The notes below the pieces were generated by a model. It had not been told where the DNA came from, did no database searches, and saw only the letters and a program-made list of their open reading frames with translations. The translations under genes and the position numbers were made by a program. From a candidate division FCPU426 bacterium (GTDB lineage: Bacteria > Oederibacteriota > Muellerivitia > Muellerivitales > Muellerivitaceae), in NCBI GenBank assembly GCA_963847625.1, contig CAWKAR010000055.1, forward strand, positions 1 through 35,866: a DNA stretch of 35,866 nt, written 5' to 3'. Shown here in pieces: positions 198 through 16,194 of this stretch (position 1 is its first letter; each line of letters begins with the position of its first letter).

Positions 198-225
198 TGT
201 CCATGAAGGGTCCCCGTCGTGGACA
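198..225. repeat. 28-bp cassette boundary site 1 (11-6-11)
   Basis: tgtccatgaag-ggtccc-cgtcgtggaca, 7 bp after the stop codon of 233..919. Confidence 0.9.
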
Positions 226-947: not shown

Positions 948-975
948 TGTCCACGCTGGGTCCCCATCGTGGACA
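948..975. repeat. 28-bp cassette boundary site 2
   Basis: tgtccacgctg-ggtccc-catcgtggaca, 7 bp after the stop codon of the DinB gene. Confidence 0.9.
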
Positions 976-1460: not shown

Positions 1461-1488
1461 TGTCCACGACGGGTTCCCTTCGTGGACA
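1461..1488. repeat. 28-bp cassette boundary site 3
   Basis: tgtccacgacg-ggttcc-cttcgtggaca, 5 bp after the stop codon of the antitoxin. Confidence 0.9.
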
Positions 1489-1493
1489 ATGAA

Positions 1494-1793
1494 CTAGCGT
1501 ATTTCTGAGATTAGTTCCGGATGGGATTTAAGAATTCGAATTAACTTTGAGGCGGAACCGCTGGGCCGTCGGATTCCCTGTTCCCAATGTTCAACAGCAT
1601 TAGGACTTGCACCCACAACACCCGCAAAACCGACCTGGGTCAGATGCAAAGCCTTGCGGATACCCTTCACTTCCTGGGCAGTGGCGGGTTTTTGCCGGTA
1701 GCTTTCCCGCATCCCGTGGAGTTTCTTGCCTTTTTTGATCTCAATAGCCTGCTTGAGGCTCTCACGCATTAGTTGAAAATCTTTGTCATTCAT
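1494..1793 (-). CDS. HigA-like XRE HTH antitoxin
   Basis: IRKALHLTQVGFA...WEQGIRRPSG; overlaps the toxin stop codon by 4 nt. Confidence 0.85.
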   Translation of the reverse strand: MNDKDFQLMRESLKQAIEIKKGKKLHGMRESYRQKPATAQEVKGIRKALHLTQVGFAGVVGASPNAVEHWEQGIRRPSGSASKLIRILKSHPELISEIR

Positions 1794-2143
1794 TTCGATT
1801 TACCCCCTTTTTTCCCCTTGGCCAAGGCCTGACGTAAATCCTTGACGAGGATTTTTTCCTGCTCAGTCGTAAGATCAGGAGCCTTTCGTTTATCAATTAT
1901 AAAAAAGAGGTAAATGTCGTCGGGCTTATCGTAAAAGTACCATACCCGATAACCACCACTTTTCCCTTCCGGCCTTACGGTTGAGGCAATACGCAACTTA
2001 TGAATCCCGCCGCCTAAATGCACACCGCCATTGGGGTTATTGTTTATGGCTTCTTCAATGGCTACTTGCAAACCCTCCTCGCGAATGGCGTCTATTAATC
2101 TTGAGTAGATAGGTGACTGAATGAAATGTAACTGTTCCATCAC
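1790..2143 (-). CDS. RelE/HigB-family toxin
   Basis: GGIHKLRIA...GKSGGYRVWYF motif, toxin-first order. Confidence 0.85.
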   Translation of the reverse strand: MMEQLHFIQSPIYSRLIDAIREEGLQVAIEEAINNNPNGGVHLGGGIHKLRIASTVRPEGKSGGYRVWYFYDKPDDIYLFFIIDKRKAPDLTTEQEKILVKDLRQALAKGKKGGKSK

Positions 2144-2165: not shown

Positions 2166-2193
2166 ATTGTAGGACTTCCCAGGAGATAGTCAA
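2166..2193 (-). promoter_or_regulatory. sigma70-like promoter of the TA cassette with palindromic operator
   Basis: TTGACT-N16-TACAAT on the minus strand; palindrome CCTACAATGTAGG overlaps the -10. Confidence 0.65.
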
Positions 2194-2223
2194 GATCCCT
2201 CCGAAAACTACCGTAAGAGGGTG

Positions 2224-3015
2224 GTCGGGTAGACCTGGACAGTTGCCCACCCAGGCCCCCCACAGATCCGGACATGCGTAATTGACGCATCCGGCTCCTC
2301 AAGCTACGGATTCGCTGTCGGGTGGTCGATCGTTTCAAAGCCCGATCTCCCTCCCGCACCTGCGCCTACCTTCGCTATCCGTTGGTCTTTCGTTAAGAGG
2401 AAACCCGGGGCTCAGTGTCCCCGTCCTCTTTCACCCCAGCGGTTCCGTGTCCTGTCCTCCCCTTCGCTCCACAGGGTCCTTTCAGGTCAGTTCCCCTGCT
2501 TCTTCGCTACTGTGGGATTCTCCGAGTTCTTGATGTCCTTTTCTTTCGAAGGTTTATTGTGTTCACCTTCCGGGATACCGCTACGACGTTTCCTTTTCGC
2601 TCCAGAAGAGGCGAAACGTTGCCTTCCTCTGACCGGGGTTATTCGGGTTACGGCTTCCCCAACCGTGTTTATTTTGCGGGAACATCAAGACTTCCCAAGT
2701 TCCTGGGGAACCCCCATGTGCACATGCCCTGCTCTACGACCGCGGTGGACTTGAGGACCCGGCCTTACTTCGGTCTCTCAGGTTTTGCCTTCCGTTCGTG
2801 GAACGACGTCGGCTTCCACAATTCCCTTTTCGAGGCTCAATCACACGGCCTGCGCACTCCCTGTTTACGCTTTGCGGCAACAGTTACCCGTTGGCTCGCA
2901 CAAAACTCGGTTCCGACTGCTGGCCAGCTTTGTCGGACAGGATTGTTTACCTGCTGGGTTCCTCTACAAAGTTTCAGTTATTACACTTCCTCCTTGTCCA
3001 AGCTTCTTGGCGCAC
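2224..3015 (-). mobile_element. group II intron lacking its RT ORF (792 nt), inserted into array site 4
   Basis: 5' GTGCG; domain V GAGCCGGATGCG...CGCATGTCCGGATC; domain VI ending CCCGAC; RT N-terminal remnant TKDQRIAK. Excision restores an intact 28-bp site. Confidence 0.9.
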
Positions 3016-3041
3016 TCCACGAGGGGTCCCCATCGTGGACA
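3016..3041. repeat. 28-bp cassette boundary site 4 (first 2 bp displaced to 2222-2223 by the intron)
   Basis: tg|tccacgagg-ggtccc-catcgtggaca. Confidence 0.9.
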
Positions 3042-3091: not shown

Positions 3092-4408
3092 CTACTTCAT
3101 CATTTTACTCAAGCGCTGAAGGTCAATCGGACGCGAGCGAACAAGAAGAAGAACGCCTTCTTCGGTAAAGCTCTCCCTCAAGATTTTCATTCTCGAACGC
3201 ATTTCTTTGATGGCGCCTTGGGCTTTATAGGGGACGAGAATCTCCTTTTCAATCATGTCTTTCTCGAAAAAATGAATAATGCGTTCACTAACGCTCTGCA
3301 TGTCCTCAGGGCTACGAGTCGAGGTTAAAACCGCGTCCGGATACTCCCGCCTGAGATCCTGCTTCTGCTCTTCGCTCAAGCAGTCGGCCTTATTGAGGAG
3401 AAGAAGATATGGCGTTTTGTCGGCGCCAATCTCACCTAAGACTTCCCGAACTACCGCGAGCTGGGAACGAAAGTTGCGGTCAACGGCATCCACCACGTAA
3501 AGAAGCAGGGTTGCGCCGCGGGCCTCATCCAGCGTGGAGCGGAAGGACGCCACCAGATCGTGTGGAAGCTTGTGGATAAAACCCACCGTATCGGTGATCA
3601 GGATTCTCGGCTGGGTCTCTGGTTGTAGGGCGCGTATCGTCGTATCCAGGGTCGCGAAGAGCTTGTCCTCCACCAGGACGTCGCTGCCGGTCAGCGCCCG
3701 CATGAGGGATGATTTTCCGGCATTCGTGTAGCCCACGAGCGCGGCGCCGAGCAGTTCCGCGCGTTTCATCCGGCGTTGCTCTTCTTCTTTTTGAACCGCT
3801 TGTAACTCGTGCCTCAGCTCAGCCAGGCGGTCGCGGACTTTGCGTTTTTCGGTCTCTATGATGGTTTCCCCGGATCCTCGTCCCGACTGGCGTTCCTTTC
3901 CTACTCCCGTATCCCTGAGACGGGGAGCCTGATAGGTTTGGCGCGCGATATCGACCTGGAGCCGCGCGGCCCGGGTCTTCGCGTGCCGGTTGAAAATTTC
4001 GATAATCACCCCGGTCCGATCGAACACCGGAACCCCCAAAGCCTCTTCGACGTTGCGAATCTGGGACGGGCTCAAATCGCAGTCAAAAACCACCATCTCG
4101 GGTCCTTCGGGAGTCGAGGCTGTGACTGGCGACTGTTGTGGCGTTTCGGAGTTCCCCTTGACCCTATCCCGGTAGCCCTTTCCGCGGGTGAGGTGGGCGA
4201 GCTCCATCAGTTTTCCCTCACCGACCATAGTGACCCCTGATGTGTTGGGTTGCCGCTGGGACATAGTGCCGGTCACCTCGTATCCCAGGGTCGTCACCAG
4301 CCGTTCGAGCTCGATCAACGATTCCGTCGCTTCGTTATCAGTCACCTTGGGCGTTCTGACCGAAAACAGGAGTGCTTTCGGATGTGTGTTTGTCTGCGGG
4401 GATTCCAT
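3092..4408 (-). CDS. hflX: GTPase HflX (ribosome-splitting factor)
   Basis: GYTNAGKSS, DKLFATLDTT, DTVGFI, NKAD motifs plus N-terminal HflX domain. Confidence 0.95.
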   Translation of the reverse strand: MESPQTNTHPKALLFSVRTPKVTDNEATESLIELERLVTTLGYEVTGTMSQRQPNTSGVTMVGEGKLMELAHLTRGKGYRDRVKGNSETPQQSPVTASTPEGPEMVVFDCDLSPSQIRNVEEALGVPVFDRTGVIIEIFNRHAKTRAARLQVDIARQTYQAPRLRDTGVGKERQSGRGSGETIIETEKRKVRDRLAELRHELQAVQKEEEQRRMKRAELLGAALVGYTNAGKSSLMRALTGSDVLVEDKLFATLDTTIRALQPETQPRILITDTVGFIHKLPHDLVASFRSTLDEARGATLLLYVVDAVDRNFRSQLAVVREVLGEIGADKTPYLLLLNKADCLSEEQKQDLRREYPDAVLTSTRSPEDMQSVSERIIHFFEKDMIEKEILVPYKAQGAIKEMRSRMKILRESFTEEGVLLLVRSRPIDLQRLSKMMK

Positions 4409-4577: not shown

Positions 4578-5684
4578 ATGGGAAATAATAGCACGGTGGT
4601 AGGGCTGGATGTTCATAAGGAAACGATCACGATTGCAGTTTTAAGGCCCGACAAGGATCGTCCTGATCCCTCGGTTACGGTTGAAAATCAGCCATCAATC
4701 ATTGAAAAGAAAGTACGGGAACTTAATCGCCGCCATGCCCCACTGGAATTCGTTTATGAGGCTGGGCCTGGGGGATTTGCTTTGTATAGGCAGATTACCC
4801 AATTGGGACACCCTTGTGCGGTGATTGCGCCCGCATGGATGCCGATGAAACCTGGGGACCGAGTCAAGACGGACCGAAAGGACGCAGAAAAGCTGTCTTG
4901 GTATTGGCGCATGAGGGATTTGAAAGAAGTCCGGGTACCCACGCCCGAAGAAGAATCCGTGAGGGATTTGCTGCGTGTCCGGGAAGATGTTCTCGCAAAC
5001 CAGTTGAGAGCCCGTCATCGGTTATTGAAATTCCTGCTTAGGCAAGGCCGGATTTATCGGGGTGGCAAACACTGGACCCAAGCCCATAGGGAATGGTTGA
5101 GACACCAGAAGTTTGAGCTGCCAAATCTCGTAAAGACCTATGAAGCGAATTACCGAATTTTGGCTGAGATTGACGTGCACTTGGCTGATTTGAATTGTGA
5201 AGTTGAATTGCTGGCACAAGACGAGAAATATCGAATTGCTGTCAGCTATTTGAAATGCCTGAAAGGCGTTAACACACTCACGGCCATGACTTTATTAGCA
5301 GAAAGCGGAGATTTCAGGCGGTTTAAAAACGCCCGCAGTTATATGCGATATACGGGAATGGTCAGTTGGGAAGACAGCACCGGAAGCCATGTTTACCGGG
5401 GCGGGATTGTCAAATCCGGAAATGCCCATTTGAGGCGAGTGCTAGTCCAAGGGGCATGGACCTATCAGCTACGAAGCCTTGGGAGTCCAACACTCGCTAA
5501 ACGGAGAAAAGGTTGTCCCCCGGAAGTTATACATTTAGCACGAAAAGCTGATGAACGTTTGCATTTGAAGTTTCGGCGGATGGTAAGCCGAAACAAACGT
5601 TCCCAGGTGGCGGTAGTGGCCATCGCACGGGAATTGGCTGGCTTTATCTGGGCGATTGGACAGATGATCCCATCCGATCAGTAA
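4578..5684 (+). CDS. IS110-family DEDD recombinase/transposase
   Basis: GLDVHK, YEAGPGG, KTDRKDA, GNAHLRRVL, AIARELA motifs. Confidence 0.95.
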   Translation: MGNNSTVVGLDVHKETITIAVLRPDKDRPDPSVTVENQPSIIEKKVRELNRRHAPLEFVYEAGPGGFALYRQITQLGHPCAVIAPAWMPMKPGDRVKTDRKDAEKLSWYWRMRDLKEVRVPTPEEESVRDLLRVREDVLANQLRARHRLLKFLLRQGRIYRGGKHWTQAHREWLRHQKFELPNLVKTYEANYRILAEIDVHLADLNCEVELLAQDEKYRIAVSYLKCLKGVNTLTAMTLLAESGDFRRFKNARSYMRYTGMVSWEDSTGSHVYRGGIVKSGNAHLRRVLVQGAWTYQLRSLGSPTLAKRRKGCPPEVIHLARKADERLHLKFRRMVSRNKRSQVAVVAIARELAGFIWAIGQMIPSDQ

Positions 5685-15120: not shown

Positions 15121-16194
15121 TTATTCCAGGTTGCATCCCGCAGCCCTGAGTTCCGCTTCCTCGGTCAGCACGTTCGGGCTCGTAAGTGGGTTGCCGGTTA
15201 GTACAGAAACAATGGTTGCGTTGTTTCCAAGCCCAGAATTGTTCACCAGGGGCTGTAAATCCACAATTTGGTTATTGTTCAAGAACAAATCTTCCAGGTG
15301 CATCAACCCAGAAAGGGGTGTGAGGTCGCTGATCTGGTTGTATGAAAGGTATAGATATCCCAAATGCGTCAGTCCAGACAGGACAGTTATGGTGGTGATT
15401 TGGTTGTTCTCGAGAACCAAGTAATAAATTTGCGTCAAATTGGACAGGATTGAAATGTCGCTGACCTGGTTATCGGCAAGGTTCAGGTATCCCAATTGCG
15501 TCAGTCCAGACAGTGCCGAGATGTCGCTGATCTGATTAGAAGATAGGTCCAATTCCAACAAATTTGTAAGGTTGGATAAGGGAGCAAGATCGGTGATTTG
15601 GTTGTTGTTGAGGCTTAAGTACTGCAACCCCGTGAGGCCAGCGATGGGAGTGAGATCGGTGATATGGTTGCCGTTGAGGCTCAAGTTCGTCACTGCGGAA
15701 CAATATTCCAACCCTTCCAGGTTGGTGACGCCGTCGGAATTAAAATACAAATCGGTAATGGTGGCCATGTCACATTGGGTAATGATGTCTGAGGTGCTTG
15801 CAATGATTCCGTTGTTAATCAATACGGTTTGGACTGCCGACAAAAGGTTGGGGTCCGGAATATTCACTGGTAAAGAACAAGCAACTGTGGGATTAACCGT
15901 GACGGTGATCGTCGGGGTATAGGTCGAAGTCCCCGTTAGAGTAATCGTAGGCGTATATGTAATGGTAAGGGTGTTGGTAGGAGTGGAGGTGATCGTCGGT
16001 GTGATAGTTGGAGTGTTGGTGGAAGTATTTATGGGTACAGGGGTATTGCTTAAACTCGGGGTTGGACTGGGCGTGTTGGTGGGGCTGGAGGAGGGTGGAA
16101 CCGCCGCGGGTCCACTGGCCATAAAATTGTGGGTACAAGCCATCGTAAGAATACTTAATCCCAAAAACAGAAATAGGCACTTTTTCATATTCAT
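15121..16194 (-). CDS. internalin-like leucine-rich-repeat lipoprotein with Thr/Pro stalk
   Basis: Lipobox-like TMAC, TPT repeats, IPDPNL cap, 22-aa LRRs (LxLxxNQIxDL). Confidence 0.9.
   Translation of the reverse strand: MNMKKCLFLFLGLSILTMACTHNFMASGPAAVPPSSSPTNTPSPTPSLSNTPVPINTSTNTPTITPTITSTPTNTLTITYTPTITLTGTSTYTPTITVTVNPTVACSLPVNIPDPNLLSAVQTVLINNGIIASTSDIITQCDMATITDLYFNSDGVTNLEGLEYCSAVTNLSLNGNHITDLTPIAGLTGLQYLSLNNNQITDLAPLSNLTNLLELDLSSNQISDISALSGLTQLGYLNLADNQVSDISILSNLTQIYYLVLENNQITTITVLSGLTHLGYLYLSYNQISDLTPLSGLMHLEDLFLNNNQIVDLQPLVNNSGLGNNATIVSVLTGNPLTSPNVLTEEAELRAAGCNLE

Follow-up and report, generated by a model that had tools for sequence, protein, structure and literature searches.

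The stretch of DNA analysed here (the window, 35,866 nt from a candidate division FCPU426 bacterium whose genome we call G000) contains a group II intron with only a remnant of its reverse transcriptase (RT) ORF, and this intron interrupts a palindromic site at the border of two gene cassettes. How does an intron without its own enzyme come to lie at such a position, and what does the insertion do to the site and to the genes on either side? A first-pass annotation had proposed that a non-IIC lineage has converged on integron attC sites, moves with an RT acting in trans, and locks hflX to a toxin-antitoxin (TA) cassette in DNA while splicing restores the site in RNA. We consider a modified scenario probable, in which the intron, whose lineage we call A, would spread by retrohoming to a fixed base of the cassette-border site: its EBS1 would pair with the conserved arm of the site, and the enzyme would be borrowed from a full-length relative.

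The intron and the site that it interrupts

The element is confirmed as a group II intron by its boundaries (5' GUGYG and 3' AY), by the triad and bulge of domain V, by the bulged A of domain VI, and by a domain I that includes EBS1 (Table 1). It lies between nt 26 and 27 of the site, as annotated at the outset, and the AGC triad and near full-length domain V (33-34 nt) described then are also found. The Rfam comparison suggested in the same place gave, besides the domain I match, 39.8 bits (E 3.6e-6) with Intron_gpII, slightly below the 40-bit gathering score. Domains V and VI, folded sequence by sequence, are predicted to take the window-type structure in 7 of 7 aligned short copies. The TKDQRIAK remnant of the RT is real but longer than had been stated: it covers 33 codons in domain IV, runs in frame into a second piece, and its two ends match both ends of related RTs.

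Table 1. Features of the intron, its site and the neighbouring cassettes (window positions), with loci of nested introns in relatives.
Feature	Position	Strand	Remarks
ORF-less group II intron, lineage A	2224..3015	-	792 nt, GTGCG start, AC end
5' exon, site nt 1-26	3016..3041	-	ends TCGTGGA; IBS1 at 3016-3022
3' exon start, last 2 bp of site (CA)	2222..2223	-	+1 C is the likely IBS3
Domain I core	2730..2946	-	Rfam group-II-D1D4-6 (RF02005), 131.1 bits
EBS1 loop UCCACGA	2796..2802	-	complementary to exon -7..-1
Tentative short EBS2 (GGGA)	2823..2826	-	probably opposite CCC of site core
RT ORF remnant	2304..2402	-	TKDQRIAK (N-terminal) joined in frame to TANP-stop (C-terminal); start codon absent
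Domain V	2265..2297	-	AGC triad 2296-2294, 5-nt loop, 2-nt (AU) bulge
Domain VI	2224..2262	-	bulged branch A at 2230, terminal AC
hflX GTPase gene	3092..4408	-	cassette; neighbours vary in relatives
Sigma70-like promoter match, 10/12	2166..2193	-	upstream of TA genes, overlaps short inverted repeat; consensus match only
RelE-like toxin and HTH antitoxin (TA) cassette	1494..2143	-
Intact 28-bp site	1461..1488	-
Intact 28-bp site	948..975	-	after DinB_2 cassette
Intact 28-bp site	198..225	-
Nested-intron loci	L043 about 632-2655; L042; L156 778-2661

The cassette site is a 28-bp palindrome with an 11-6-11 layout, and rejoining the window exons gives a site that resembles the three intact window copies and has their orientation. 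A weight matrix of the site finds 51 matches of at least 17 bits in G000 and none when reversed as a control; chance may account for a few of the low scores. Together, 51 sites of 28 bp make up 0.03% of the genome. Of the 30 other family genomes, 27 contain the pattern (at most 2 mismatches), as does the single genome from elsewhere in the order; none of 29 others of the phylum does. DNA matches to hflX occur in 11 of the 30 family genomes and to the TA region in 8. Among the junctions listed, each of the two lies between sites next to other genes, and no second hflX-TA pair occurs; because they sit between sites with changing neighbours, both are cassettes. The hflX cassette is 83-94% identical over 8 genera. 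Some HflX paralogues rescue antibiotic-stalled ribosomes. At window positions 4578-5684, where relatives carry the upstream site of the hflX cassette, there is an IS110-family transposase and no site was found. Farther along, RadC, ArdC, PIN/HTH pairs, a type IV coupling protein and ParA/ParB are encoded at positions 7745-29901; these genes suggest that the array adjoins a backbone of plasmid or ICE type. Between 6200 and 22272 the intergenic regions contain several repeat families (D1-D9, 30-230 nt) that are dispersed and bear no relation to the cassette site, and a leucine-rich repeat protein with 66-nt repeats lies at 15121-16194.

Direct-repeat sites bounding genes that change neighbours are thus present, but the sites are not the integron attC that had been proposed: R'' and R' boxes are absent, the ends of the palindrome are different, and short serine recombinase genes lie beside it. 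A 276-aa protein encoded at C61:35485-36315 of G000 has Resolvase and Recombinase domains. Among the 14 loci found with it, the end of the gene lies 8-38 nt from a site in all 8 short versions (an intron interrupts one of the sites) and in 0 of 5 long versions, the remaining locus being cut by a contig end. The short serine recombinase is likely the enzyme of the cassette sites. This query detected the short gene in just 6 of the 32 genomes; since several site-rich genomes have no match, the assignment stays at likely. An Xer/dif identity, raised by the 11-6-11 shape, was dropped given the short serine recombinase genes that end beside the site; G000 has 18 matches to the tyrosine recombinase family PF00589.

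Insertion base, exon pairing and the fate of the site

Homologues were collected blind to their flanks, by DNA searches of 61 and 32 related genomes and by searching metagenomes with a domain I pattern that left EBS1 and flanks unconstrained. Of the 24 metagenome loci that the pattern returned, 10 reach at least 85% identity with the window intron; 14 are distant, matching only in part, and none of these 14 is at a site. With the duplicates L048 and L057 counted once, and with the window, G001 and G019 included, there are 12 distinct close loci. In 10 of these 12, window included, the intron is inserted after nt 26 of the site. Because sites occupy only 0.03% of the genome, this is not chance, and the sequence comparison confirms that lineage A inserts into the site in a targeted manner. 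The claim of a non-IIC lineage specialised on these sites thus holds, the counter-case of homologues scattered in unrelated flanks having failed to appear. The cassette-sense orientation noted for the window copy is correct but not a fixed trait, 7 of the 10 on-site copies being in cassette sense and 3 antisense.

The pairing of EBS1 with the 5' exon, which the first-pass annotation had asked for, amounts to 7 bp in the window and covaries with the target. Across the 10 on-site copies, 9 have 6 of 6 Watson-Crick pairs and one has 5 of 6. The usual loop is UCCACG(A); it is UCCAAU in L046 and L048, where the arm is a TTGGA variant. Two off-site relatives (86% identical) have the loops UAACAC and UUACGC, each pairing 6 of 6 with its own exon. 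All six distinct 3' exons seen start with CA, and the tentative EBS2 has one compensatory change in the G019 relative. Targeting probably relies on this covarying EBS1-IBS1 pairing, i.e., on ordinary EBS-IBS homing, and not on the hairpin reading of IIC-attC introns. Still, IBS1 plus IBS3 (+1 C) occurs 910 times in G000 with only 36 occurrences within sites, so base pairing alone is insufficient for the specificity. When the core CCC and the +2 A are added, 32 of 50 occurrences are in sites (26 of 36 outside long ORFs). Specificity would then result from EBS1, EBS3 and a short EBS2 together with protein contacts (for instance at the +2 A) and the purging of insertions in genes.

Could the palindrome itself be what is read? 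The RT-RNA particle might need the site folded in single-stranded DNA, with EBS1 setting only the register. The site does fold at -11 kcal/mol as DNA, each of the 10 on-site copies of lineage A occupies a full palindrome (no copy at a half-site was found among the loci read), the off-site L056 also follows a palindrome-like 10-6-10 sequence, and base pairing alone predicts just 64-72% on-site. We nevertheless regard this as unlikely, because the 86%-identical relative in G019 has no stable upstream hairpin (-1.8 to -4.2 kcal/mol), the fold would mask IBS1, EBS1 pairs over 6-7 bp against 3-4 bp in IIC introns, and, of the other lineages described below, B is also found at half-sites while C and D lie within the palindrome. 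Homing by EBS-IBS pairing is the reading retained here. Two targets were set aside: L042 as a hairpin-free target, its left arm being displaced by a lineage-D intron on the opposite strand, and the G019 target as an attC, which has no stable fold. The 5' exon of L056 (86% identical) is a different palindrome-like sequence that starts with TGT, with the intron apparently 2 nt from its end; it may belong to another recombination-site family. The contig of L056 stops short of the 3' exon.

A related question is whether the exon fold matters after insertion. The 5' exon has a predicted fold of -14.0 kcal/mol that hides IBS1, against -9.7 kcal/mol for the EBS1 duplex, and this predicted structure could hinder splicing. 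Lineage B has an equal exon-fold problem yet reaches 11 copies in G026, so the block is probably not absolute.

The consequences for the site can be judged from 159 intact copies, whose last two bases are CA (138), CG (17), TA (2), TG (1) or AG (1), and never GT; nt 27 is C in 155 of them. Since GT never ends an intact site, it is plausible from these frequencies that the insertion impairs the site. A lock between hflX and the TA genes would likewise be plausible. A splicing event changes only the RNA and cannot restore the DNA substrate of the recombinase. It may be asked whether the intron was retained for this, to fix hflX to the TA genes or to put expression under splicing control. The replacement of the two conserved end bases by GT and the intact domains V and VI would fit such a role, but 26 of the 28 bp are still present in the interrupted site, which scores above 15 of the 51 genome matches and is intergenic, no relative read has hflX adjacent to the TA genes, and homologous introns lie between arbitrary cassettes. 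The TA genes also have a promoter-like element of their own downstream of the intron, a weak argument by itself because 2 such matches were found against 1.9 expected by chance. We find retention for such a function extremely improbable.

Probable spread of the ORF-less form

Six distinct on-site copies (the window, L041, L046, L048, L049 and L052), 92-99.9% identical, share one common deletion. Two of them, L041 and L049, are 99.9% identical although both of their flanks are unrelated and their orientations opposite. This near-identity in unrelated flanks, with the shared deletion, makes it likely that the ORF-less form moved in trans, as had been proposed; the simplest reading would be a single deletion followed by repeated homing. 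L046 also has a 51-nt insertion in domain III, and its intron starts with CTGCG.

The same distribution bears on whether the ORF-less intron is immobile and one or a few old insertions were carried around by cassette shuffling. The intron is downstream of the apparent crossover and could ride with the next cassette, G000 and G001 have no cognate RT, and there are plasmid- or ICE-type genes on the contig. A rider would, however, retain its 3' flank, whereas the six distinct 3' flanks all differ; moreover, right-arm sequences differ, orientation flips, and the contexts of the L041-L049 pair are unrelated. As a general explanation, carriage by cassettes is already contradicted and seems very improbable to us, even if riding may explain how the window copy arrived. 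A search for recombination at intron-bearing sites (one 3' flank with a new 5' flank) gave no informative pair, shared flanks being duplicates or double insertions in the same site.

If homing in trans is the process, which enzyme would be used? In on-site L043 the start of the ORF is visible downstream of a nested intron; L042 matches L043 at 99.8% identity over 1648 nt. On-site L045 has a frameshifted RT ORF. The ORF pieces of L043 and L045 match P0006, an intact 465-aa RT-maturase present on 21 contigs, in a cluster of 14, and giving no endonuclease hit. In a contig from an RNA library, 1320 nt take the place of the 109-nt remnant of the window copy and the CA exon is kept; the C-terminus of the remnant is closer to P0004 and P0005 than to P0006. 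Among the loci read, no on-site lineage-A copy bears its complete RT in one piece.

Where the earlier proposal needs qualifying is the host itself: no cognate RT was found in the G000 assembly (best matches 36-40% identical, other lineages). It encodes two RTs, one in a CGC-triad intron that follows a terminator-like hairpin, the other in a broken intron of lineage C. With 63 contigs and a completeness of 93.9%, the assembly may have missed a collapsed RT-bearing copy; the window copy is probably stranded, without a cognate RT in the assembly. In G001 (96% complete) there is no RT match at E<=1e-30, and the lineage-A copy has lost its 3' half to IS1595 elements. Besides this truncated copy, G001 (loci L014, L114 and L152) contains short forms of lineages C and D, three in number, one C being in tandem. 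Viral contigs gave 0 domain I pattern matches and 0 confirmed RT loci, a genome contig collection gave 20 distant loci (19 archaeal) and no close homologue, plasmids gave no better than 71% partial DNA matches, and no sequencing run contained half of the window stretch. Contigs of eight sequencing runs have lineage A with varied flanks, the exon join being without coverage.

The retrohoming cycle that we favour would start with read-through transcription from upstream cassettes; the RNA would be spliced and then reverse-spliced into another site. Because the site is palindromic, either arm would be a target, which would suit an endonuclease-less intron that depends on the replication strand. 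The site would serve as a multi-copy, intergenic and horizontally shuffled safe harbour, and the insertion would probably weaken one recombinase-binding arm, as a side effect rather than as regulation.

Other lineages at the site and comparison with known introns

Lineage A is not the only one at this site. When the 32 genomes of the order were searched with the Rfam domain V model, 67 hits lay outside G000; the 5' junction was readable in 60 of them and not in 7. Of the readable junctions, 49 are on-site (48 of 58 after merging two duplicated loci), two more belong to lineage-B copies after half-sites lacking the left arm, and 9 are elsewhere. The on-site copies fall into three lineages, each with its own register. 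Lineage B accounts for 30 copies after nt 28 (two in 27-bp variants, two in sites also interrupted by C), lineage C for 15 after nt 11 and lineage D for 4 after nt 19. In three of the 15 lineage-C copies, a contig end cuts the 3' side short, a tandem copy follows, or the contig begins on the 5' side. Most of the copies come from G025 and G026 and are therefore not independent events across taxa. The EBS1 loops, where read, match these registers: UGUCUAC, UGUCCAC or UGUCCAA in B, CGUCGUGG in C, and UGGGUC or CGGGUC in D, following A or G at nt 19. The RTs of the four lineages are 33-45% identical and form separate branches, the deep branches involving long rows and being unsure. Off-site relatives with other EBS1 loops are in the RT tree for A, B and C, whereas lineage D is a single row there and has an off-site DNA relative, L111. 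Short forms of 700-860 nt occur in all four. The convergence of a non-IIC lineage on the site thus stands, but with insertions after nt 11, 19, 26 and 28 at least four lineages have converged on it and not one. They would do so because the site is a multi-copy intergenic safe harbour.

Several loci hold more than one intron. L042 has, with a junction near 1649, lineages A and D on opposite strands of one site, and in G025 (L128/L140, L136 and L138) C after nt 11 and B after nt 28 share single sites. Twintrons also occur, a further lineage being nested in A and B introns after ATAGT near the start of domain III (Table 1). In G000, the lineage-C intron L079 (C20:37354-35418) has a frameshifted RT and an EBS1 that fits the cassette site, and was inserted off-site through wobble pairing and one extra base. 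L122 was considered as a fifth insertion base, but it has a lineage-C EBS1 and 3 extra nt and was taken as an aberrant junction. L130 has, near position 1954, a small hairpin inserted in a site core.

How do these introns relate to known ones? The class D introns RmInt1 and RmInt2 of Sinorhizobium home into IS elements, RmInt2 into IS inverted repeats; the inverted repeats double its targets, and a delta-ORF RNA can be complemented by protein in trans (PMC4615759). Lineage A resembles them as an endonuclease-less IIB-type intron with probable EBS-IBS homing into a multi-copy sequence of mobile elements. It differs in that the target is a cassette-border site, likely that of a serine recombinase, instead of an IS end, that natural ORF-less copies spread, that four lineages share a single 28-bp target, and that P0006 does not have the class D C-terminal motif LX3AX3PXLF[V/A]HW (motif as given in PMC4615759).

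IIC-attC introns such as S.ma.I2 are likewise group II introns specialised on recombination sites of gene cassettes (PMC7923331, PMC8876359, PMC4424553). The window intron has an AGC triad where IIC introns have CGC (PMC7923331), and the EBS1 of lineage A is longer, as noted above. The junction is TGGA/C and not TTGT/T, and 7 of 10 copies are in cassette sense, whereas IIC-attC introns are antisense. P0006 is 32% identical to the RT of the CGC-triad intron of G000 and is in a different clade, not class C. Lineage A probably works like RmInt2 and fills the niche of IIC-attC introns without passing for one.

Non-IIC introns in cassette arrays beside TA cassettes have precedents in IIB introns of integron and CALIN arrays, UHB.I2 (CL1) and H.ha.F1/F2 (class E), for which the source gives three isolated copies (two being fragments) whose exons are poorly conserved (PMC7923331); here, by contrast, a fixed base is used over many loci and EBS1 covaries with the site. 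The Trichodesmium dnaN introns also include an ORF-less ribozyme that relies on the RT of a related intron, and a review describes such introns as rare in bacteria and splicing-only (PMC12584367, PMC4424553). The difference is that one deletion derivative lies at six unrelated sites here and that all four lineages have short derivatives. Lineage A shares with class E (IIE) the 5-nt domain V loop, the lack of an endonuclease domain and an EBS1-dominated, IIB-like exon recognition (PMC3753933, PMC3552965), but the 5-nt loop is also found in IIF (PMC3753933). A further class E feature is an alpha-prime motif that caps a DId3 stem-loop (PMC3753933). P0006, P0002 and P0004 match RVT_1 with or without GIIM and no other Pfam family, and the lineage-A RT groups with those of ANME-1, Bradyrhizobium and Halomonas, in a tree without database-named class E references; the ANME-1 introns UA.I6-8 have been placed near class E (PMC7923331). 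A class E-like affiliation of lineage A is thus suggested but unconfirmed.

A search of the open-access literature by title and start of abstract found nothing on group II introns at serine-recombinase cassette sites. The four registers, the covariation of EBS1 and the spread of ORF-less copies come from the present analysis; non-IIC introns in integron arrays are known as isolated cases (PMC7923331). A wider reading is possible, though we hold it tentatively: a serine-recombinase cassette system not yet described may offer its 28-bp site as an ecological niche divided among at least four group II lineages, each retargeted independently and each at its own base (11, 19, 26 or 28), with MITE-like ORF-less derivatives of every lineage moving in trans. 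Insertions after 11 and 19 would split the site and weld cassettes together, those after 28 would spare it and ride with cassettes, and those after 26 would tune it, so that introns would reshape which genes stay shufflable.

Intron retargeting appears to have been repeated in nature: the EBS1 loops of four distant lineages fit different registers of a single 28-bp target, and close relatives inserted elsewhere serve as controls. The short copies indicate that in bacteria, group II introns without an ORF do not only decay but can also spread as non-autonomous elements. The association between introns and cassettes is extended from IIC-attC introns to cassettes outside integrons, where the mechanism is a different one. 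The four registers bear on which bases the short serine recombinase needs, and the 28-bp sequence, likely a recombination site, would be a niche shared by several genetic parasites.
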